Positions 1 through 10,768 of a stretch of 10,768 nucleotides of DNA are shown in pieces. The translations under genes were made by a program, and so were the position numbers. This stretch comes from a virus. Lineage: Duplodnaviria > Heunggongvirae > Uroviricota > Caudoviricetes. Numbering within the stretch: position 1 is the stretch's first letter; every line of letters begins with the position of its first letter. The notes under the pieces are model-generated. The model was not told the DNA's origin and made no database searches. It was given only the letters and a program-made list of their open reading frames with translations. The stretch lies in IMG/VR virus record IMGVR_UViG_2671180279_000005; one strand, written 5' to 3'.

Positions 1-276
1 GTGGCTTCTGTTTCTATCAGCTGTCCCTCCTGTTCAGCTACTGACGGGGTGGTGCGTAACGGCAAAAGCACTGCCGGACATCAGCGCTATCTCTGCTCTC
101 ACTGCCGTAAAACATGGCAACTACAGTTCACTTACACCGCCTCTCAGCCCGGTACGCACCAGAAAATCATTGATATGGCCATGAATGGCGTTGGATGCCG
201 GGCAACCGCCCGCATTATGGGCGTTGGCCTCAACACGATTTTCCGCCATTTAAAAAACTCAGGCCGCAGTCGGTAA
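1..276 (+). CDS. insA: IS1 InsA (transposition inhibitor / N-terminal part of transposase), GTG start
   Basis: 91-aa [43 protein letters not shown]... with a C4 zinc-finger-like CxxC...CxxC and HTH region characteristic of IS1 InsA. Confidence 0.9.
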
Positions 277-698
277 CCTCGCGCATACAGCCGGGCAGTG
301 ACGTCATCGTCTGCGCGGAAATGGACGAACAGTGGGGATACGTCGGTGCTAAATCGCGCCAGCGCTGGCTGTTTTACGCGTATGACAGGATACGGAGGAC
401 AGTTGTGGCGCACGTTTTCGGTGAACGCACTCTGGCCACACTGGAGCGTCTTCTGAGCCTGCTGTCGGCCTTTGACGTGGTGATATGGATGACGGATGGC
501 TGGCCGCTGTATGAATCCCGCCTGAAGGGAAAGCTGCACGTAATCAGCAAGCGTTACACTCAGCGCATTGAGCGACATAATCTGAATCTGAGACAACATC
601 TGGCAAGGCTGGGACGGAAGTCACTGTCGTTCTCAAAATCGGTGGAGCTGCATGACAAAGTCATCGGGCATTATCTGAACATAAAACACTATCAGTAA
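195..698 (+). CDS. insB: IS1 InsB reading frame; expressed as InsAB' transposase by programmed -1 frameshift at the A6C motif (252-258)
   Basis: 167-aa frame overlapping the insA 3' end in the -1 frame; slippery AAAAAAC at 252-258; sequence ...[21 protein letters not shown]... typical of IS1 InsB. The M at 195 is an ORF-track start, not necessarily an independent initiation site. Confidence 0.85.
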
Positions 699-1209: not shown

Positions 1210-1257
1210 GGAGAAACTAACCGACCTTGCAGGGTCGATATGATGAGGAGCAGCAAA

Positions 1258-1620
1258 ATGGCTAGCGAACGCAGTACTGATGTGCAGGCATTTATCGGGG
1301 AGCTGGACGGCGGCGTATTTGAAACCAAAATCGGCGCAGTTCTCAGTGAAGTCGCTTCCGGTGTGATGAACACGAAAACCAAAGGTAAGGTCTCGCTCAA
1401 CCTGGAAATCGAACCGTTTGATGAGAACCGAGTGAAAATCAAACACAAACTCTCATATGTTCGCCCGACTAACCGCGGGAAAATTTCCGAAGAAGACACC
1501 ACCGAAACGCCGATGTATGTCAATCGCGGTGGTCGCCTGACTATTCTGCAGGAAGACCAGGGACAGTTACTGACTCTTGCCGGTGAACCTGACGGAAAAC
1601 TCCGCGCAGCAGGTCGTTAA
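1258..1620 (+). CDS. yfdP: Prophage protein of unknown function, YfdP-like (120 aa)
   Basis: ATG at 1258 with GAGGAG Shine-Dalgarno 8 nt upstream (the ORF-track start at 1240 lacks an RBS); 120 aa; first gene of a P-Q-R-S-T series whose sizes (120/274/178/120/101 aa) and order match the E. coli CPS-53 (KpLE1) yfdP-yfdT genes as I recall them. Symbol assigned from that operon context, not from sequence-level recognition. Confidence 0.6.
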   Translation: MASERSTDVQAFIGELDGGVFETKIGAVLSEVASGVMNTKTKGKVSLNLEIEPFDENRVKIKHKLSYVRPTNRGKISEEDTTETPMYVNRGGRLTILQEDQGQLLTLAGEPDGKLRAAGR

Positions 1621-1685
1621 TATCGTTTTTAATTAACTGATTATTTATCTCATCACTGAATATCTTTATATAGTGAGGACTTATT

Positions 1686-2510
1686 ATGTCTCAGAACTTA
1701 GACGCAACCGCAATTAATCAAATCCATGCCCTTATTTCTGCTCAGGGTGTTAATGAAATTATCAGTAAGATTGGTGCCGATGCTGTGGCATTGCCTGAGA
1801 ATTTCCGCATTCATGATCTGGAAAAATTTAATTTAAATCGCTTCCGTTTCCGTGGTGCGCTTTCCACTGCCAGCATCGATGACTTTACCCGTTATTCTAA
1901 AGATCTTGCAGATGAAGGCACCCGCTGCTTTATCGATGCTGATAATATGCGTGCCGTCAGTGTGCTTAACCTGGGTACTATTGATGAACCAGGTCACGCA
2001 GATAACACCGCCACACTCAAACTGAAAAAGACAGCACCGTTCTCTGCTCTGTTGTCTGTTAACGGCGAGCGTAACTCCCAGAAGTCACTGGCAGAATGGA
2101 TTGAAGACTGGGCCGACTATCTTGTGGGCTTTGATGCTAATGGTGACGCTATTCAGGCAACAAAAGCGGCTGCGGCTGTCCGTAAAATCACGATTGAAGC
2201 AAACCAGACCGCTGATTTTGAAGATAATGACTTCAGCGGCAAACGCTCCCTGATGGAGTCTGTCGAAGCGAAGACCAAAGACATTATGCCAGTGGCATTT
2301 GAATTTAAATGCGTTCCGTTTGAAGGTCTGAAAGAACGTCCGTTTAAATTACGCCTCAGTATTATCACTGGCGATCGTCCTGTACTGGTTCTACGCATTA
2401 TTCAGCTGGAGGCGGTGCAGGAAGAAATGGCTAACGAATTTCGTGATCTGCTTGTTGAGAAATTCAAGGACAGCAAAGTAGAAACCTTTATTGGTACTTT
2501 CACCGCCTGA
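1686..2510 (+). CDS. yfdQ: Prophage protein YfdQ-like (DUF2303 family), 274 aa
   Basis: ATG at 1686 with GAGGA Shine-Dalgarno 7 nt upstream; 274-aa ORF; size and operon position match yfdQ. Followed by an intrinsic terminator. Confidence 0.65.
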
Positions 2511-2524
2511 TTTCATTACTGCAA

Positions 2525-2546
2525 ATGCCCCTGCGGGGGCATTTAT
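2525..2546 (+). terminator. Rho-independent terminator after the yfdQ-like gene: 7-bp GC-rich stem ATGCCCC / GGGGCAT, 4-nt loop TGCG, then TTTAT
   Basis: aaATGCCCCtgcgGGGGCATtta at 2523-2545, 15 nt after the stop codon at 2508-2510. Confidence 0.6.
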
Positions 2547-2637
2547 GGAAACGTAATTTACTCAATAATCGCCGGATGGTGAGGGATTCTTTTTACCAGA
2601 ATTCAGCGCGGTGCAGCGCATATACGTGGAGAACAAA

Positions 2638-3174
2638 ATGTCATTTATTAAAACTTTTTCCGGGAAGCATTTTTATTATGACAGGATAAATAAAGACGAC
2701 ATCGATATTAACGATATCGCGGTTTCCCTTTCAAATATCTGTCGCTTTGCCGGTCATCTTTCGCACTTCTACAGCGTCGCCCAACATGCGGTTCTTTGCA
2801 GCCAGCTGGTGCCGCAGGAATTTGCTTTTGAAGCGTTAATGCATGATGCAACAGAAGCGTATTGCCAGGACATTCCCGCACCACTGAAACGCCTTCTTCC
2901 TGACTATAAACAAATGGAAGAAAAAATAGACGCCGTAATCCGTGAGAAATACGGGTTACCCCCAGTTATGAGTACGCCCGTGAAATATGCCGATCTCATC
3001 ATGCTGGCAACCGAACGCCGCGATCTCGGGCTTGATGATGGCTCTTTCTGGCCTGTACTGGAAGGTATCCCGGCAACAGAGATGTTCAACGTGATTCCAC
3101 TGGCTCCGGGCCATGCCTACGGGATGTTTATGGAACGCTTTAACGAGTTATCGGAGTTACGCAAATGCGCATGA
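2638..3174 (+). CDS. yfdR: HD-domain phosphohydrolase (5'-deoxynucleotidase-like), YfdR-like, 178 aa
   Basis: ATG at 2638 preceded by GGAGAA Shine-Dalgarno (preferred over the ORF-track ATG at 2611); HD-domain signature residues in ...SVAQHAVLC... and ...LMHDATEAY...; 178 aa, the size of YfdR. Confidence 0.7.
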   Translation: MSFIKTFSGKHFYYDRINKDDIDINDIAVSLSNICRFAGHLSHFYSVAQHAVLCSQLVPQEFAFEALMHDATEAYCQDIPAPLKRLLPDYKQMEEKIDAVIREKYGLPPVMSTPVKYADLIMLATERRDLGLDDGSFWPVLEGIPATEMFNVIPLAPGHAYGMFMERFNELSELRKCA

Positions 3175-3527
3175 ATGTTTTCGAAATGGAAGGGTTTCTT
3201 CGTGGGAGATGTGTACCGCGAGATCTGAAAGTAAATGAAACAGATGCTGAATACCTAGTGCGTAAATTCGATGCGCTTGAAGCTAAATGTGCAGCACAGG
3301 AAAACAAAGTAATACCAGTGTCAACTGAACTGCCACCAGCAAATGAAAGTGTTTTGTTATTCGATGCTAACGGAGAAGGCTGGCTAATTGGCTGGCGTTC
3401 TCTCTGGTACACCTGGGGACAAAAAGAAACCGGAGAATGGCAGTGGACATTTCAGGTCGGGGACCTTGAAAACGTCAATATCACTCTCTGGGCAGTAATG
3501 CCAAAAGCACCGGAGGCTGGAGCATAA
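3165..3527 (+). CDS. yfdS: Prophage protein YfdS-like (DUF551-like), 120 aa
   Basis: Start ATG at 3165 (or in-frame ATG 3171 forming an ATGA overlap with the yfdR stop at 3172-3174); 120 aa; translationally coupled within the operon. Confidence 0.6.
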   Translation: MRMNVFEMEGFLRGRCVPRDLKVNETDAEYLVRKFDALEAKCAAQENKVIPVSTELPPANESVLLFDANGEGWLIGWRSLWYTWGQKETGEWQWTFQVGDLENVNITLWAVMPKAPEAGA

Positions 3528-3832
3528 TGACCACTTTTACCGACAAAGAACTGATTAAAGAAATTAAAGAGCGTATCAGCAGCCTTGACGTGCGAGACGA
3601 TATTGAGCGCCGTGCTTATGAAATCGCACTCCTATCTCTGGAAGTAGAACCAGATGAACGCGAAGCTTATGAATTATTCATGGAAAAGCGTTTCGGTGAC
3701 TTAGTAGATCGTCGGAGAGCAAAAAACGGCGATAACGAATACATGGCATGGGATATGACTCTCGGTTGGATCGTCTGGCAGCAACGAGCTGGTATCCATT
3801 TTTCAACAATGTCACAGCAAGAGGTGAAATAA
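3527..3832 (+). CDS. yfdT: Prophage protein YfdT-like, 101 aa
   Basis: TAATG overlap with the upstream stop (3525-3527); GGAGG Shine-Dalgarno upstream; 101 aa. Confidence 0.6.
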   Translation: MTTFTDKELIKEIKERISSLDVRDDIERRAYEIALLSLEVEPDEREAYELFMEKRFGDLVDRRRAKNGDNEYMAWDMTLGWIVWQQRAGIHFSTMSQQEVK

Positions 3833-4182
3833 TGGAGCCATACAGCCTCACACTCGATGAGGCCTGTCATTTTCTCAAGATATCCAGACCGACTGCCATT
3901 AACTGGATACGCACAGGGCGTCTTCAGGCAACACGCAAAGATCCCACTAAGAATAAATCTCCTTACCTCACAACACGACAAGCCTGCATTGCGGCTCTTC
4001 AGTCTCCGCTGCATACTGTCCAGGTGAGCGCGGGTGATGGCATAACAGAGGAAAGAAAATGTCACTCTTCCGCAGAGGTGAAATATGGTACGCCAGTTTC
4101 ACATTGCCGAACGGTAAAAGATTTAAACAGTCTCTTGGAACAAAGGACAAAAGGCAGGCGACAGAACTCCATGACAAGCTAA
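3832..4182 (+). CDS. xis: Excisionase / recombination directionality factor-like HTH protein (Xis); the 3' end as drawn overlaps int by 124 nt in another frame, so the true C-terminus is uncertain
   Basis: ATG at 3832 in a TAATG overlap with the yfdT stop, GAGGTG Shine-Dalgarno; N-terminal segment [28 protein letters not shown] resembles the winged-HTH of AlpA/Xis-type excisionases; located immediately upstream of the integrase gene as in lambdoid phages. Confidence 0.55.
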
Positions 4183-5222
4183 AGGCTGAAGCATGGCGGG
4201 TCAGCAAACTTGGTGAAATACCTGATATAACGTTCGAGGAAGCGTGTGTCAGGTGGCTTGAAGAGAAAGCACATAAAAAATCACTGGACGATGATAAAAG
4301 CCGGATCGGATTCTGGCTTCAACATTTCGCAGGAATGCAACTAAGAGACATTACTGAATCAAAAATTTATTCAGCAATGCAGAAAATGACGAACCGGCGT
4401 CATGAGGAAAACTGGAAACTCAGGGCAGAAGCATGCAGAAAAAAAGGGAAACCTGTTCCAGAATACACGCCAAAACCAGCGTCCGTTGCAACGAAGGCTA
4501 CGCATCTTTCATTTATAAAGGCCCTACTAAGAGCCGCAGAGCGTGAATGGAAAATGCTGGATAAGGCACCAATTATTAAAGTGCCCCAACCAAAGAATAA
4601 ACGGATCCGCTGGCTGGAGCCCCATGAAGCACAAAGGCTGATTGATGAATGTCCGGAGCCATTAAAGTCTGTTGTTGAATTTGCACTGGCAACAGGCCTA
4701 AGACGCTCGAACATCATCAACCTTGAATGGCAACAAATAGATATGCAGCGCCGGGTGGCATGGATAAACCCGGAAGAGAGTAAATCAAACCGCGCAATTG
4801 GCGTTGCGCTGAATGATACTGCATGTCGCGTATTGAAAAAACAAATCGGGAATCATCACCGTTGGGTATTTGTGTACAAGGAAAGCTGTACCAAACCAGA
4901 CGGAACGAAAGCGCCAACAGTCAGGAAGATGCGGTATGACGCAAACACAGCCTGGAAAGCGGCGCTGAGACGGGCTGGTATTGATGATTTCAGATTTCAC
5001 GACTTGAGACACACCTGGGCAAGTTGGCTGGTTCAAGCCGGAGTCCCGTTGTCAGTGTTACAGGAAATGGGAGGCTGGGAGTCTATCGAAATGGTTCGTC
5101 GATATGCTCACCTTGCACCTAATCACCTTACCGAACACGCACGGCAAATAGACTCGATCCTGAACCCATCGGTCCCAAATTTGTCCCAGTCAAAAAATAA
5201 GGAAGGTACTAATGATGTGTAA
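4059..5222 (+). CDS. int: Lambdoid-prophage tyrosine integrase (DLP12 IntD / phage 21-type), 387 aa
   Basis: N-terminus [28 protein letters not shown] typical of this integrase family; C-terminal catalytic region with [10 protein letters not shown] and MVRRYAHL (Tyr nucleophile); stop at 5220-5222, 15 bp from the tRNA-derived att core. Confidence 0.9.
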
Positions 5223-5236
5223 CTTATTGATTTAAA

Positions 5237-5282
5237 TGGTGCCGATAATAGGAGTCGAACCTACGACCTTCGCATTACGAAT
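5237..5282 (-). other. 46-nt copy of the 3' end of tRNA-Thr(CGU) (thrW-type), anticodon loop through CCA; interpreted as a phage/island attachment-site core (att junction), not a functional tRNA gene
   Basis: Minus-strand sequence ATTCGTAATGCGAAGGTCGTAGGTTCGACTCCTATTATCGGCACCA matches the anticodon-loop-to-CCA portion of E. coli tRNA-Thr (thrW) as I recall it; the upstream minus-strand sequence (GGAAAGTGATATTTTTGG) does not continue into the D-arm or acceptor stem. Confidence 0.75.
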
Positions 5283-5377
5283 CCAAAAATATCACTTTCC
5301 ACAATGTTTCATCGACTTCCATTTCATCACATAAAAACAATATATATCAATAAATTAAGACAAAAACACCTTTCACG

Positions 5378-5446: not shown

Positions 5447-6769
5447 ATGGCAACAGTGATAACTCAGGATCGACAGATAGCAAGCCTTGTTCCCCCTGTA
5501 GGAAAAAACCGGATTGTCGTCAGCGTCAAATCAAAAGCAGGTGCGGGGTTGTATATCGAATCCCGATCAGGGAGCCAAACAAAGAGTTGGCTCTACCGTC
5601 CCTACCTCAACGGCAAGCAGATAAAAATTACCCTGGGAGCTTATCCTGCAATGACGCTGGCCCAGGCTCGTGAAGCACATGCTGAAGCCATTGAGTTAGT
5701 GAAGCAGGGAATTGACCCCAGATACGTTCGTAAAACTGAAAAATCGAATAATGAGCAGATGCCCATATTTTCTGAATTGTGGGAAAACTGGTTGTCATTC
5801 AGAGAAACCAGCAAGCCAATAGGGGCTCGTACACTGGCTGATTATAAGGGAACGTATCGTCGCCATCTTGAGCAGGGGCTAGGCTCCGTGAGAGTGTGCG
5901 ATTTATCGCGTTCATATTTGTTTGCACACCTGAGCAAAGTCCGACAATCCAGCGCTGAAGGTGTGCGCAAAGGGCTTATCATCCTGAATATGACACTTGA
6001 CCATGCCACACTTCAGGGATTAATCGAGCTCAACCCTGCCCGTCTGTTAAAACCGGCGATGTTTGGTGCTTCCATGGCTAAACCGCGTGAGCGCTGGTTA
6101 TCGCAGGATGAGCTTCAACGGCTCTGGAAAACACTAGAAGAAGCTACTGCTGGTGGCGGTTCAGTTAGCACCGGTGGAAAAGGTATCGCTTCCAGTGTCG
6201 TTTTATCCCATGCGATAGCTAACACACTGAAGCTGATTATTCTGACCGGCGTTCGCCGCTCTGAAGCGGTTAAAATGCGCTGGGATCAAATCAACGGCGA
6301 TCGCTGGACAATACCGGAAACAAAGAATGGTAAAAGTCATGTAGTAACACTGCATCCGCTGGCACTGTCTATCCTGAAGAAACAGCGAATTATCTCCGAA
6401 GGCGCATTTGTCTTTGAGTCCACCAGCAACCAGGGATTCCCTATAACCGGAGACGCTGTCACACGAGCACTGGAGCGCCTGCGTAAAAAATATCTGGCAG
6501 AGCTGGAGCCATTTTCTCCCCATGATTTACGCCGCAGTGTCGCTACTGGTTGCGCTGAATATCTGGATGCCCCGGAGCGCCTGATTGAGCGATTGTTAAA
6601 CCACATTCCTAAAGACCGCCTGATCAGAACCTATCAGGTCGGGCAGCAGGCGGAAAAATTGCGTAGTTTGTTTTTGAGCTGGGGGGATTTTGTGGAGCGG
6701 TATGTAGCGCAGTCTGCCAGCCATGAGGTGACGGATAATGTTGTTCAGGTTAAGTTTGGCGGCAGATAA
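5447..6769 (+). CDS. P4-type tyrosine integrase (DUF4102-like N-terminal arm-binding domain plus phage-integrase catalytic domain), 440 aa
   Basis: N-terminal pattern ...GAGLYIESRSGSQTKSWLYRPYLNGKQIKITLGAYPAMTLAQAREAHAEAIELVKQGIDP typical of P4/CP4-type integrases; C-terminal HDLRRS...RLIRTYQ region consistent with the catalytic R-H-R-Y tetrad. Confidence 0.85.
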   Translation: MATVITQDRQIASLVPPVGKNRIVVSVKSKAGAGLYIESRSGSQTKSWLYRPYLNGKQIKITLGAYPAMTLAQAREAHAEAIELVKQGIDPRYVRKTEKSNNEQMPIFSELWENWLSFRETSKPIGARTLADYKGTYRRHLEQGLGSVRVCDLSRSYLFAHLSKVRQSSAEGVRKGLIILNMTLDHATLQGLIELNPARLLKPAMFGASMAKPRERWLSQDELQRLWKTLEEATAGGGSVSTGGKGIASSVVLSHAIANTLKLIILTGVRRSEAVKMRWDQINGDRWTIPETKNGKSHVVTLHPLALSILKKQRIISEGAFVFESTSNQGFPITGDAVTRALERLRKKYLAELEPFSPHDLRRSVATGCAEYLDAPERLIERLLNHIPKDRLIRTYQVGQQAEKLRSLFLSWGDFVERYVAQSASHEVTDNVVQVKFGGR

Positions 6770-6886
6770 CGTAATACTCGCTCTGATGGCGTTCAATGAA
6801 CAAAAAACTCTCATATCAGTCGGTCAACTCGATACTAATAGTGGGTATCAGCGATAGATTTCATGGTAAGAGTAAATGGGTAAATT

Positions 6887-6912
6887 AAAAGCAGTTACAG
6901 TGTACTGCTTTT
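6887..6912. terminator. Bidirectional intrinsic terminator between convergent genes: 9-bp stem AAAAGCAGT / ACTGCTTTT, 8-nt loop, A-run on one side and T-run on the other
   Basis: aaattAAAAGCAGTtacagtgtACTGCTTTTaattcatttt at 6882-6922; sits directly after the stop (6923-6921) of the minus-strand operon and about 120 bp after the plus-strand integrase stop. Confidence 0.6.
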
Positions 6913-6920
6913 AATTCATT

Positions 6921-7739
6921 TTACGGTTTACTTTGCTCGCTAATTTCCTGCAACTTCCAAAGTAAAGCCAACACGAGCCGAGGAGCACCTTTATATCCCT
7001 CGTAACCTTCATGTTCTGAGACAGAGCTCATCGCATCAAGTAGCCTGTAAGCTGGGCCATTTACATCAAATAACTGGTCCCCAATCCTTTTAACATCAAT
7101 AGTTACCAACCTACCACCGTCTTGCATCACCTGTGAAATTTCATGGAGAGCATCCGTCCAGTATGGTTGTCTCCCCCACCACTCGCCACGAGATTGACCA
7201 GCCTTCGTTATGGGAAGAGGAAAATGGGGATTACTTTGCGAAATGACGGATTTATTACCAATCCAATTGAAATTATCCTGACCTTCAACCCAGACTGGCA
7301 AAGTTGTTAAATTTTCCGGGAGCCCTTCCATCTCCTCCCAGCAAACGGTTGGGACCATGTCACCTTGCTCAAGAAAACCAATGAGTTCAGATAACCAACC
7401 AGCATACCCCCAGTCACGTCCCTTGCCAGTAAGGGCAATATCCGGAAAACGGGTGATAAATTTCTCTGCCAGGGTGCGAGCATCATTACCGTCAGTATCT
7501 GTCCAACTGAAATAGTGACCCGCACCAGTGATAGCGACTAAGGAGTCGGAAAGCTTGTCGGTCGGAATCGCAATACCATTGTCGGCAAAATAATCTCGCG
7601 GGGCGATTGCGAATCTGAACCCCTGTGCATTGAAGTAAGACATACCCCGCAGTTGTTGGTAGCCAAGACGATGTAGCTCTGAAAGCATCCGCAGGCATCG
7701 TTGCGCTTTACGTACCCATTCAAATTTCGACTTCATCAT
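6921..7739 (-). CDS. Hypothetical protein, about 272 aa, Trp-rich, no recognisable domain; second gene of a helicase operon
   Basis: Open frame on minus strand; preferred start ATG 7739-7737 (or 7736-7734) preceded by GCAGGAGAG Shine-Dalgarno and forming an ATGA overlap with the helicase stop codon TGA (7738-7736); the ORF-track start at 7763 would give 280 aa with a 28-nt overlap. No Walker A, HNH, Toprim or other catalytic signature detected by eye. Confidence 0.7.
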   Translation of the reverse strand: MMKSKFEWVRKAQRCLRMLSELHRLGYQQLRGMSYFNAQGFRFAIAPRDYFADNGIAIPTDKLSDSLVAITGAGHYFSWTDTDGNDARTLAEKFITRFPDIALTGKGRDWGYAGWLSELIGFLEQGDMVPTVCWEEMEGLPENLTTLPVWVEGQDNFNWIGNKSVISQSNPHFPLPITKAGQSRGEWWGRQPYWTDALHEISQVMQDGGRLVTIDVKRIGDQLFDVNGPAYRLLDAMSSVSEHEGYEGYKGAPRLVLALLWKLQEISEQSKP

Positions 7740-10700
7740 CTCTCCTGCATGATCGCTGTACATTGTTTTGCGGCATCGACTCTCCGCTCGTACTCCTCAA
7801 GTGTGATGTTCTCATAACAACAGTCAGCTTCGTCCCGGCGATAGCGATTGCAGCCATAGAAAACACCACCATCCTTATTTTTCCGCTTAAGCATTGTGCC
7901 AAGACCACAGCGTCGGCAGACAATTTCTATCTCCTGACATTCTGGGTTCGCGCATATTCTTTGCAAACCATTATGCATCACCATCGGAGAACTACATTGC
8001 TTGCAGGCACTAGCCATATAATCACAGGCAGGAGAGTGCGAGCAGACATAGAATTTTTTATCATAGCGACTCACTTTACCCGTTAAGCAGCCTGATTCAC
8101 AATCGGGGCAATGCCACTGACCGATTTCAAGAGAATCACTTTTAGTGATGAGCTGTTGACCCATTCTGGCAATCTCCTCAACAAACGCTGAGGTGTTTTG
8201 GCTATCAAAGATCATAAATACATAGTGCCGGGCGCGGGTAACGGCGACGTAAAACAAACGGCGCTCTTCGGCAAACAAATATGGCTCTTGCTCCGGGAGA
8301 AGAAGATCTATCAGTTCGTCATTTTCCTTTGCCGATGGAAAACACCCTTTCTCAAGACCAAGGAGTAGCACGTAATTCGCTTCCAGGCCTTTACTGGCAT
8401 GCGCGGTCTGGTATTGAATATCCAGCAGAGGAAATTCAGCCATTAGCGCCTGAACATCCATATCCTTAAGCTCTCGCATATTTTCCAGACGATAGCGGCC
8501 AATAAGCATTACTGGTGCCCGCCTGGTACTGTTGAGTCTCACTTCCCGACGATGACAACGAGTAAGCGCTCTCTTGATTTGCAGACGATAAGCTTCAGCC
8601 TTTCTTTGGTTGCGATCGGATAGGTCAATACCGTGCATTTGTTCCTGAATATCAAGCAGCTGTACTGCAGCATGCTCCACCTGTGAGAGCGTAGTAATCT
8701 CTTTCTTCAATTGTGCTGGATTACGGGTGACAAAGGCAGAGCTGAGTTCATGTATGCGATTATTAAAACGATAACTCTTGTCAAGAGGCAACATTTTCGC
8801 TGGCGAAAATTGATGATCAAAGCGGGTAAAAAATCTTAGATCAGACCCGTTAAAACGATAAATGGCTTGCCAATCATCTCCTACCGCAAATAACCGCATA
8901 TTATCCCGGGTTGCCAGTAATGCTTTTAACAACTTGCCTCGTCCACCGGAAAGATCCTGGAATTCATCAACCAGTACGTAGTCATATCGGTGATGAAATT
9001 GTCCCTCCTGAAGCGCTGTTGTTGCTTCCGCGATCATATCGCTGAAGTCCATCTCGCGCTGCTCTTTAAGGTGAGCTTCATAGGCATCGTATACTGGTTT
9101 GAATAATTCGATAAATGCCTGAGTACGCCCCATGTCTATTCGTTGAGGGGATGCCAGGAGGTCTGAAAAAGAAAATTGCCCTTCTTTGAAAAGCCCAAGA
9201 AAGCGGAGCATCAGATCGATAAATCCTTGCCACGGCGATGAACTGGAGTTTTTAAGTTCATCCAGAAGCGTATCAGTATCACGCAAATGCTGTGGTTCAC
9301 TTACCCGATTAAGTATATCGAGTAAATTATTCTCAAGTATTCCTTCGGCTAGCTGATAGCTATATAACTCTTCCAGTCGGGTATTATGTTGTTGATGCAA
9401 CTTCCGCTTCCAGGCGACTCCTTCAAGGTATGCAGCCTGATTAACAAAAGGGGCCGTTCTCATTTGCCGATCCACGCCCAGGTATTCAATATAGGTCTTG
9501 CTTCTCGGCAGGTAAAAATCAGGTTTATACTGGCGGCGCTCAATCGTTGCTGTATTTACCTCATAATTCGCTTCGTATTCGAATGGAACAGAATACAAAT
9601 ATAAATAGTTGGCAACTCTCAACTCCCCCACACTCTTTACCCACTGCCCCGTCAGCGTAATCAGGCGACAACTTTGCAGAAACTCATGATATTCTTCAAT
9701 AGCATTGAAGTCATATTCACAACGTCCTGGCGTGCTATAACAAACAAAATATTTAACTAGTTGAGTTTTATAATCATCGTTGACACTTATTTCTGACTCT
9801 AATTTCGCCTCAATAAAATGGCGCAGTTCATTATTTTGCTCTGCAAAACGTGTAAGAGAACGCTTGACGCCTACACTTTCAGCAACGACACGGTTTCCAA
9901 AAGCATGAAAGGTCGTTGCTTTTAGCTTGCCGCCACTTTCTGGCAATCGTTCTGTGATACGCTCAGCCATTTCCCGTGCTGCTTTATTCCCGAAAGCCAG
10001 CATTAATATATTTTCAGGCTGAGCTAAACCTGCTTGCAATAAATACCCTGCTTTACCAATTAATGTCGACGTTTTTCCGGTACCCGCACCAGCAACGACC
10101 AAAGTATGATCTTCATTGGTAACACAGGCTTTACGCTGAGGGGCACTAAGCGGTTGAGATTCGATCTGTTCAAAGAAAGTCTGATAAGCTGACAATAACT
10201 GTGGGATAACTTTCTCGTTGAAGTGGCTCCTGGCAGATTCTGAAACATCGTCCATGGATAACTTCAGCGCCAGTTGTGCTATGGGGTTATTACCTTCATG
10301 AGCAATAAAATCTGCATCAATCGCAAGATCCAGCAATCGTTTCTTTACCTGCATTAACTGTGACAAAGATCGCCATTCCCACGAAGAAAAATAGTGTCCC
10401 CCTTTTTGATAACGTTTTACTAGCTCCAGCAATTCCCTCCACTCATTGCTGTGCTGGAAAATATCTAAAGCTGTACATTGGATTTTTTTGATAAGCGTTT
10501 CCAGCTGTTGCAGATTGAAACCATTTAATTGATATATCTTACTCTCCAAACCAATAACAATCTCAGAGTACAACCATTTTTTATTTATTTTAACATTTTT
10601 AATATCACCGATGGGCAATTGCACACTCACCCCATGATGGATGAAAGTCAATTGGCCTGGAGACAATAATATTTTATTAGCACGTCGACGCCAAATACCC

Positions 10701-10768
10701 CACAGATCGTAAAGCGGATGCGTGCTGAGGTTATGTTCACATTGCAACTGTGGAGTTAATTTTTTCAT
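7736..10768 (-). CDS. Helicase IV (HelD)-like UvrD/Rep-family SF1 helicase, 1010 aa, with an internal PD-(D/E)xK / Vsr-DUF559-like nuclease-like insert and three C-terminal topoisomerase-type C4 zinc ribbons
   Basis: Walker A GAGTGKTS (aa 227-234, nt 10067-10090); motif II LVDEFQD (aa 599-605, nt 8954-8968); FAVGDDWQAIYRFNGSD, KSYRFN, TAHASKGLEANYVLLLG and YVAVTRAR motifs collinear with E. coli helicase IV as recalled; insert GELRVANYLYLYSVPFEYE...YKPDFYLPRSKTYIEYLGVD (aa 378-432); Zn ribbons CPDC...CSHSPAC, CKQC...CANPEC, CRRC...GCNRY...C (aa 887-985, nt 7814-8110). Start codon is the last 3 nt of the window, so an upstream in-frame start cannot be excluded. Confidence 0.85.
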   Translation of the reverse strand: MKKLTPQLQCEHNLSTHPLYDLWGIWRRRANKILLSPGQLTFIHHGVSVQLPIGDIKNVKINKKWLYSEIVIGLESKIYQLNGFNLQQLETLIKKIQCTALDIFQHSNEWRELLELVKRYQKGGHYFSSWEWRSLSQLMQVKKRLLDLAIDADFIAHEGNNPIAQLALKLSMDDVSESARSHFNEKVIPQLLSAYQTFFEQIESQPLSAPQRKACVTNEDHTLVVAGAGTGKTSTLIGKAGYLLQAGLAQPENILMLAFGNKAAREMAERITERLPESGGKLKATTFHAFGNRVVAESVGVKRSLTRFAEQNNELRHFIEAKLESEISVNDDYKTQLVKYFVCYSTPGRCEYDFNAIEEYHEFLQSCRLITLTGQWVKSVGELRVANYLYLYSVPFEYEANYEVNTATIERRQYKPDFYLPRSKTYIEYLGVDRQMRTAPFVNQAAYLEGVAWKRKLHQQHNTRLEELYSYQLAEGILENNLLDILNRVSEPQHLRDTDTLLDELKNSSSSPWQGFIDLMLRFLGLFKEGQFSFSDLLASPQRIDMGRTQAFIELFKPVYDAYEAHLKEQREMDFSDMIAEATTALQEGQFHHRYDYVLVDEFQDLSGGRGKLLKALLATRDNMRLFAVGDDWQAIYRFNGSDLRFFTRFDHQFSPAKMLPLDKSYRFNNRIHELSSAFVTRNPAQLKKEITTLSQVEHAAVQLLDIQEQMHGIDLSDRNQRKAEAYRLQIKRALTRCHRREVRLNSTRRAPVMLIGRYRLENMRELKDMDVQALMAEFPLLDIQYQTAHASKGLEANYVLLLGLEKGCFPSAKENDELIDLLLPEQEPYLFAEERRLFYVAVTRARHYVFMIFDSQNTSAFVEEIARMGQQLITKSDSLEIGQWHCPDCESGCLTGKVSRYDKKFYVCSHSPACDYMASACKQCSSPMVMHNGLQRICANPECQEIEIVCRRCGLGTMLKRKNKDGGVFYGCNRYRRDEADCCYENITLEEYERRVDAAKQCTAIMQER

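Follow-up and report, generated by a model that had tools for sequence, protein, structure and literature searches.

Extra genes are known to be embedded in restriction operons, and a few of them, PrrC (EcoprrI), TgvAB (V. cholerae VPI-2) and BrxU (BREX), turned out to be independent or guard-type immune modules. In the literature, genes of this kind count as a second line of defence, either independent or of the guard type (PMC12707154, PMC11411939). Type II Gabija, represented by Liu-DS1, combines a GajB-like UvrD helicase with the small protein GajC and is a validated abortive-infection defence (PMC13069673). ARG-centric systems are built around an ADP-ribosylglycohydrolase and a phosphatase, and Iyer et al. 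(2022, PMC9503650) predicted that they counteract ADP-ribosylation by viruses; TY-Chap1-3 and ARPP accompany this core as accessory domains, and restriction-fold nucleases and helicases are also recruited (PMC9503650). Here we analysed a 10,768-nt viral sequence (Caudoviricetes; IMG/VR record IMGVR_UViG_2671180279_000005), which we call the window and which means this whole stretch of DNA. Its minus strand carries a large helicase gene followed by a gene for a small hypothetical protein, hereafter the partner, which is the subject of this analysis.

PrrC, TgvAB and BrxU are closest to the partner in logic, each likewise being a small extra gene that is co-transcribed in or at the end of a restriction operon on a mobile island. 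Unlike PrrC, GmrSD/TgvAB and the PADLOC models, however, the partner has no recognizable nuclease or ATPase domain and shares neither sequence nor fold with them, and unlike PrrC, TgvAB and BrxU its family enters three kinds of operon, namely type I restriction-modification (RM), McrBC and BREX operons. What is new here is a large, undescribed protein family without structural relatives, whereas its genomic role as an accessory gene of restriction operons is of a known kind. We lean, with some reserve, towards the view that the partner plugs into restriction-type defence as a promiscuous accessory, most likely as a module for recognition or as an adaptor.

The resemblance to type II Gabija lies in the layout, as in E. 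coli both pair a UvrD-family helicase that has an extra domain with a small hypothetical protein encoded after it. Among the features reported for type II Gabija, the Walker A residues (K252/T253 there versus K232/T233 here) and the prevalence in E. coli differ. A split MazF-like fold whose beta1-beta2 loop is functional, as in GajC, was not found in the partner. Canonical Gabija, in which GajA (ATPase plus TOPRIM) adjoins GajB, was rejected because the partner has no ATPase or TOPRIM signature and GajA is missing; the helicase is flanked by hsdR upstream and the partner downstream, with no TOPRIM-OLD gene. The likeness to GajB and helicase IV (HelD) is a feature of the upstream helicase, not of the partner. 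The ARG-centric core (ADP-ribosylglycohydrolase plus rhodanese/DSP-type phosphatase) is fused to or lies beside some members of the partner family, but there is no glycohydrolase at the window locus. The partner could not be identified with any of the named accessory domains, for which the features sought were the TY-chaperone fold (a 5-stranded meander plus 2 helices) and, for ARPP, an absolutely conserved cysteine and glutamine. The conserved cysteine is the hallmark of ARPP, and the partner family has no invariant or near-invariant cysteine.

An exhaustive search with the family profile returned 823 representative clusters (E up to 1e-3) and 528 at 1e-10; a separate search gave 41 close clusters. 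A recurrent theme around homologues of the partner was a position on the same strand as DNA-restriction genes, a few to a few hundred nucleotides away. The type I RM block of Enterobacteriaceae that contains the partner itself is one such case. In type I RM loci, the gene order was hsdM-hsdS-hsdR-Mrr-Fic-homologue in Rugamonas and hsdR-hsdM-hsdS-NucS-like-homologue in Falsiroseomonas, and on a Polaromonas plasmid the order hsdM-hsdS-PDDEXK-LprI-homologue-hsdR was observed, with a 4-nt overlap between the homologue and hsdR. McrBC loci had the order McrB-McrC-homologue in Niveibacterium and Ramlibacter, with a convergent McrBC in Brevundimonas. BREX genes enclosed the homologue in Maliponia (PglZ-homologue-BrxL) and preceded an orthologue on a metagenomic contig, L057 (BrxL-orthologue). 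Further defence contexts included Zorya together with BrxR, Thoeris, a DISARM-like operon and a WYL regulator, and some homologues lay in integrative/conjugative elements with TrwC/TraG, VirB4 or primase genes. Family homologues were detected neither in 50,697 phage genomes nor in IMG/VR, and only three matches to the N-terminal domain (N-domain) were found in 72,556 plasmids. These results show that the family recurs co-directionally and at close spacing in three kinds of operon (type I RM, McrBC and BREX) across unrelated bacteria, as well as in integrative/conjugative elements, and not in phages. The locus in the window itself lies in a defence island, with type I RM and type I Zorya systems adjoining the helicase-partner pair.

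A preliminary description of the window regarded the partner as stoichiometrically coupled to the helicase and as its possible dedicated sensor or effector. This was not supported by the distribution of the two genes. Helicase orthologues without a downstream partner were found in Aeromonas (67% identity), Pseudomonas graminis (66%) and Vibrio splendidus (47%, beside BREX). Partner-linked helicases all end in ...IMQER or ...IMQEK, and the tails of the solo orthologues are unrelated. A helicase was present within 10 kb at only 1 of the 27 genome loci with a partner relative (Enterobacter cloacae); about 25 other species lacked it, and no helicase was found at the loci of the partner orthologues in Dechloromonas (71% identity) and Propionivibrio (64%). 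On contig L057, a full-length, 272-aa partner orthologue (84% identical) stands 27 nt downstream of the BREX gene brxL and adjoins a related P4-type integrase gene, with no helicase and no type I RM on the contig. DNA homology between this contig and the window begins exactly at the leader CAGGAGAGATGATG and ends past the terminator region, and the sequences further upstream are unrelated. Since homology starts at the partner's own Shine-Dalgarno sequence, the last codons of the helicase and the ATGA start/stop overlap are made from the leader of a cassette, and the limits of the alignment indicate that the partner gene travels as a cassette that includes its own ribosome-binding site. The partner gene is thus shown to be a discrete mobile unit consisting of the leader, the coding sequence and a terminator-like hairpin.

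Gene loss pointed in the same direction. In E. cloacae M-7 (L011 10001-10802), the partner is frameshifted beside an intact helicase, and in several metagenomic lineages (L037/L038 and L041 10001-10560) it is reduced to its N-terminal 180-185 aa. Judging from these loci, the helicase can persist after loss of the C-terminal domain of the partner or, in one strain, of the entire partner gene. A leftover ORF (open reading frame) of 68-75 aa follows the truncated gene in L037/L038. No obligate pairing emerged from lineage co-occurrence, given the solo helicases, the helicase-less partners and the brxL-linked orthologue. Together, these results show that the partner is independent of the helicase in that the two are not obligately paired, speak against a dedicated subunit, and show that the ATGA overlap does not mark an obligate two-subunit machine. 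Of the coupled translation proposed earlier, the overlap and co-expression within a defence island stand, while the overlap loses its meaning as a sign of dedicated pairing, being derived from a cassette leader.

The partner contains 11 tryptophans (4.0% of its residues), about 2.6 times the typical share (binomial P ~0.004), as E. coli proteins typically contain ~1.5%. The count of 13 given previously was too high, although the enrichment itself holds. No Walker A motif and no hydrophobic or transmembrane-like stretch was found in the partner (highest 19-aa Kyte-Doolittle mean 0.76), in agreement with the earlier statement that it lacks both signatures. Its pI is 5.4-5.6, with 28 K+R versus 34 D+E, and its N-terminal helix is basic. 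Searches against Pfam, PADLOC, NCBIfam and PHROGs profiles gave no significant match (the best Pfam match, at E 0.055, missed the cut-off), searching the PDB with the profile of the partner family returned nothing meaningful, and no recurrent Pfam match to the core was seen among 144 relatives even at E up to 5. The orphan status proposed for the partner therefore persisted after remote homology searches, with no relative in fold and no assignment to a housekeeping or any other known family. Literature searches by accession numbers and by genomic context retrieved no description of the protein. These data support the view of the partner as an orphan, tryptophan-rich, soluble two-domain protein without a known catalytic signature.

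Structure prediction gave a confident alpha+beta model for the N-domain, and its ~175 aa apparently form a new fold without structural relatives. Residues H23, Q28, R31, R42, F77, W79, D81, R97, D109, Y112 and W115 are conserved in at least 90% of 144 diverse members. The N-domain occurs essentially alone in 123 of the 188 proteins examined, and homologues of ~180 aa without the C-terminal extension exist. The extension itself was modelled at a pLDDT (predicted local distance difference test) of 36-73 and has few other relatives. Matches to the C-terminal domain alone occur on Acetobacter plasmids: pAPA12-014 of Acetobacter pasteurianus (L044 8001-8291) and 18 other plasmids carry small ORFs ~40% identical to it, and the pAPA12-014 ORF (~79 aa) lies between insertion sequence (IS) elements, adjoining a YhaV/PrlF toxin-antitoxin pair. 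A tandem second copy of the domain, suspected by eye in some relatives, was not detected by the family hidden Markov model even at E 10. We also rejected two candidate functions. A HEPN ribonuclease, which would have a conserved Rx4-6H motif in an all-helical fold, was considered because the E. coli protein contains R17-x5-H23; however, conservation across the family does not extend to position 17, and the fold is alpha+beta. A DNA-mimic anti-restriction protein of the Ocr/ArdA type, expected to be strongly acidic and encoded by phages or plasmid leading regions, did not fit the pI and charge balance given above, the absence of homologues in the phage genomes and IMG/VR, or the three plasmid matches.

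Some relatives are fused to enzymes. In 5 of the 144 members, the N-domain is joined to an ADP-ribosylglycohydrolase plus DSP-type phosphatase, to NUDIX or to an EEP nuclease/phosphatase; the glycohydrolase-phosphatase fusions account for two of the members (P0126 and P0159), and a linked gene of this kind was found at 1 of ~27 loci. That locus is in Brevundimonas (L020 7658-9259, minus strand), where a protein with DSP-type phosphatase and ADP-ribosylglycohydrolase domains is encoded divergently beside a stand-alone homologue. The fusions and this neighbourhood link point to ADP-ribose processing and hint at the possible identity of a ligand. Other recurrent fused domains in the relatives match no described family: a profile search of the PDB with two of them (~290 aa, N-terminal, and ~120 aa, C-terminal) gave nothing meaningful, and PADLOC models matched none of 10 fused relatives.

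The minus-strand ORF 6921-7763 was confirmed, with 280 codons. Its start had been left ambiguous between 7763 and 7739/7736, and the choice now falls on the latter pair, because all homologues begin with MKSK or MMKSK and because of the position and spacing of the Shine-Dalgarno sequence. No Shine-Dalgarno sequence precedes ATG 7763, whereas the GGAG core lies 5 nt from ATG 7736 and 2 nt from ATG 7739. The helicase TGA (7738-7736) overlaps ATG 7739 as ATGA, and its final A is also the first base of ATG 7736. In the Leclercia orthologue the second of the two ATGs is present and the first is absent. The NCBI annotation pipeline PGAP uses the 272-aa form starting at 7739, and another NCBI record gives 271 aa. 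ATG 7736 is most likely the start, with 7739 as a possible one; for cloning the locus, the partner start should be taken as 7736/7739, and the gene brings its own ribosome-binding site. Downstream of the stop codon, a perfect 15-bp hairpin (dG -17.6 kcal/mol, z -7.2) was left unflagged by a consensus terminator scan, and a promoter/terminator scan around the gene was uninformative. Different hairpins occupy the equivalent place after the partner in L057 and L035. The hairpin in the window is a probable two-way terminator and 3' end of the cassette. The ratio of nonsynonymous to synonymous substitution rates (dN/dS) of the partner relative to its Lelliottia and Leclercia orthologues was 0.03-0.09, compared with 0.05 for the helicase. 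By this measure, and given hundreds of homologues, the partner ORF is a real, translated protein-coding gene under strong purifying selection.

How the partner might act can be outlined conditionally. Its conserved aromatic and charged surface (the 11 residues listed above) would bind a nucleotide-derived ligand, possibly related to ADP-ribose, or a modified macromolecule, and the partner would then modulate the co-expressed nuclease or translocase, whichever is present. In E. coli it may act with the co-translated helicase, itself a candidate helicase-nuclease, with the type I enzyme or with both. The occurrence of one domain on many enzymes and in three types of restriction system is more readily explained by a module for recognition or by an adaptor than by an effector; the ligand-sensing step specifically is much less certain than the overall reading. 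A more specific version, which we consider rather unlikely as formulated, is that the N-domain is a new-fold sensor plugged into type I RM, BREX and McrBC systems, where its role would be to recognize phage counter-measures against these systems (for instance anti-restriction proteins, or the ADP-ribosylation of DNA or proteins of the host) and to license a nuclease encoded with it, in this case the helicase-nuclease, as second-line defence. Such a portable guard cassette would resemble PrrC in its logic, yet be transferable between systems. The partner family behaves as a portable add-on to three mechanistically different DNA-restriction systems, joined in E. coli to a candidate helicase-nuclease. 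If the partner senses something common to these systems, such as phage inhibition or DNA/protein modification, a general back-up layer of restriction would be revealed, and the sensing reading, if true, would also add a new ligand-binding or catalytic fold. With its apparently new fold and unusual portability, the partner is a well-defined, testable candidate.

Several observations weigh against a plug-in accessory of restriction. The restriction link was found at ~8 of 22 independent loci and may partly mirror the general crowding of defence islands. Some homologues have no recognizable defence gene nearby (L014 and L043), and clustering of all flanking ORFs across loci identified no conserved neighbour beyond the family itself. 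The ligand-binding or adaptor role is drawn from the conservation pattern and from rare fusions (5/144), and the many invariant charged residues are equally compatible with a new enzyme. The conserved helicase-partner junction in Enterobacteriaceae and the similar constraint on both genes are compatible with a local functional partnership. These last features, together with the Shine-Dalgarno sequence within the helicase 3' end, the ATGA overlap, the retention of the pair in E. coli, Lelliottia, Leclercia, Enterobacter and several metagenomes, and the validated precedent of a UvrD-type helicase with a small unknown protein in type II Gabija (PMC13069673), would suit a two-gene helicase defence in which the partner is an obligate subunit, sensor or effector, kept at a fixed ratio by translational coupling. 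We regard this as unlikely in view of the solo helicase orthologues at 66-67% and 47% identity, the ~25 species that have the partner family and no helicase, the 84% orthologue behind brxL with homology from its own Shine-Dalgarno sequence, the frameshifted gene in E. cloacae M-7 and the lineages that retain the N-domain only. That the partner is a chance ORF overlapping the helicase 3' end and no gene at all, as its annotation merely as a 'hypothetical protein' might allow, is refuted for practical purposes by the hundreds of homologues, the strong purifying selection and the confident structure prediction.

The partner could instead be an independent single-gene defence or abortive-infection module, its N-domain being a new enzyme or toxin that hitch-hikes in restriction operons like PrrC, BrxU and TgvAB. 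A stand-alone gene of ~180 aa is the usual form (123/188 without an extra domain), it has its own Shine-Dalgarno sequence and terminator as well as many invariant polar residues, and there are precedents embedded in type I RM loci (PMC11411939, PMC12707154). However, no known catalytic motif or fold and no conserved neighbour resembling a cognate antitoxin was found, gene loss is apparently tolerated in E. cloacae M-7, and the fusions are to enzymes, suggesting a targeting or sensing role; we give this possibility a modest minority share. A function for the mobile element itself, as an establishment, anti-restriction or restriction-alleviation factor of integrative/conjugative elements, seems improbable to us. 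A P4-type integrase adjoins the partner in E. coli, Lelliottia, L057 and L006, homologues occur in conjugative elements that carry TrwC/TraG, VirB4 or primase genes, and the fusions that would remove ADP-ribose resemble counter-defence enzymes, but phages and IMG/VR have no homologues, the plasmids yielded just the three N-domain matches, Leclercia and other contigs keep the partner with the helicase and no integrase nearby, the partner (pI 5.4-5.6, basic N-terminal helix) is not acidic like DNA mimics, and it is co-transcribed inside host-protective operons. A leading-region anti-defence gene of conjugative plasmids was likewise rejected: one integrative/conjugative context fits, but plasmids carry almost no members of the family and phages none.

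Table 1. Coordinates of the partner gene, its signals and its neighbours in the window.
Feature	Position	Strand	Details
Partner coding sequence	6921..7736	-	271 aa from ATG 7736 (MKSK...); alternative ATG 7739 gives 272 aa; stop TAA 6923-6921
N-terminal domain	7206..7739	-	aa 1-178 (272-aa numbering); conserved core of an uncharacterised family, alpha+beta
C-terminal helical extension	6924..7205	-	aa 179-272; variable, absent in many homologues; low-confidence model
ATGA start/stop overlap	7736..7739	-	helicase TGA 7738-7736; partner ATG at 7739 or 7736
Partner Shine-Dalgarno sequence AGGAGAG	7740..7746	-	within the final helicase codons
15-bp hairpin	6881..6918	-	3 nt past the partner stop; the partner and integrase genes converge on it
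Helicase gene	7736..10768	-	1010 aa, superfamily 1A (SF1A), UvrD/helicase IV-like, Walker A K232/T233; possible nuclease-like insert; C-terminal Zn ribbons
P4-type tyrosine integrase of the island	5447..6769	+	convergent with the partner

The upstream ORF encodes a true SF1A helicase of the UvrD/Rep/PcrA type that is closest to helicase IV. Its helicase IV profile score was 420 bits, below the cut-off of 543, GajB models matched at E 1e-50, and its family comprised 1610 matches at E<1e-30. An insert (window 9434-9646, aa ~375-445) gave weak matches to homing-endonuclease and Holliday-junction-resolvase PHROGs, and its YKPDFYL...IEYLG segment can be read as a possible PD-(D/E)xK-like motif. Several CxxC...C zinc-ribbon modules of the topoisomerase type lie at the C-terminus (window 7799-8122, aa ~883-990). 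The helicase may be a candidate single-gene helicase-nuclease defence in its own right, as solo orthologues of ~1000 aa occur in three other genera (Aeromonas, Pseudomonas and Vibrio), in one case beside BREX. In the complete genomes of E. coli strains 613, 571 and 774, the helicase is broken by the IS4-like element ISVsa5, with the partner intact. E. coli X14-3 (L084) has a mosaic helicase: the 5' two-thirds (equivalent to window ~8520-10768) are mostly only ~73-90% identical to the window, and identity rises to ~100% over the final ~800 nt, the partner and the integrase. We considered this mosaic as evidence for a breakpoint at the helicase-partner junction and rejected it, as the breakpoint lies inside the helicase near window 8520.

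The window region is identical to E. coli E24377A, where a P4-type integrase gene is followed on the opposite strand by the partner, helicase, hsdR, DUF4268, hsdS and hsdM genes, with a type I Zorya system after them. The island was present in only 36-43 of 5426 complete E. coli genomes, with essentially identical partner copies. Its flanks are a tRNA-like gene and a CPS-53-like prophage remnant in the window, and paoD and a LysR fragment in E24377A, indicating that the island is mobile. The block hsdM-hsdS-DUF4268-hsdR-helicase-partner recurs with other flanks in Lelliottia, Leclercia, Enterobacter and several metagenomic contigs, showing that the partner is the last gene of this mobile cassette. 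A related integrase flanks the partner orthologues in Lelliottia and in the BREX context.

The DUF4268 gene between hsdS and hsdR (L001 21280-22467) has equivalents in all Enterobacteriaceae copies, and in Falsiroseomonas a NucS_C/DUF4268-like gene (L021 8636-9961) stands in the same place with respect to the partner homologue. A conserved, Cys-rich ORF of 102 aa lies between the partner and the integrase in Lelliottia (L035 10863-11171) and on the BREX-linked contig (L057 9765-10073); it is absent from the window. An 80-nt tRNA-like gene, called as tRNA-Thr(CGT), was found at 5237-5316 (minus strand) directly ahead of the island integrase. Positions 1240-5316 comprise a CPS-53/KpLE1-like prophage remnant (yfdP, yfdQ, yfdR and neighbours) with a second integrase gene at 4059-5222 (plus strand), so that the remnant and the island form two integrative elements in tandem at one site. 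The first 700 nt of the window hold a fragment of an IS1-type transposase, with an InsB-like ORF at 195-698 (plus strand).

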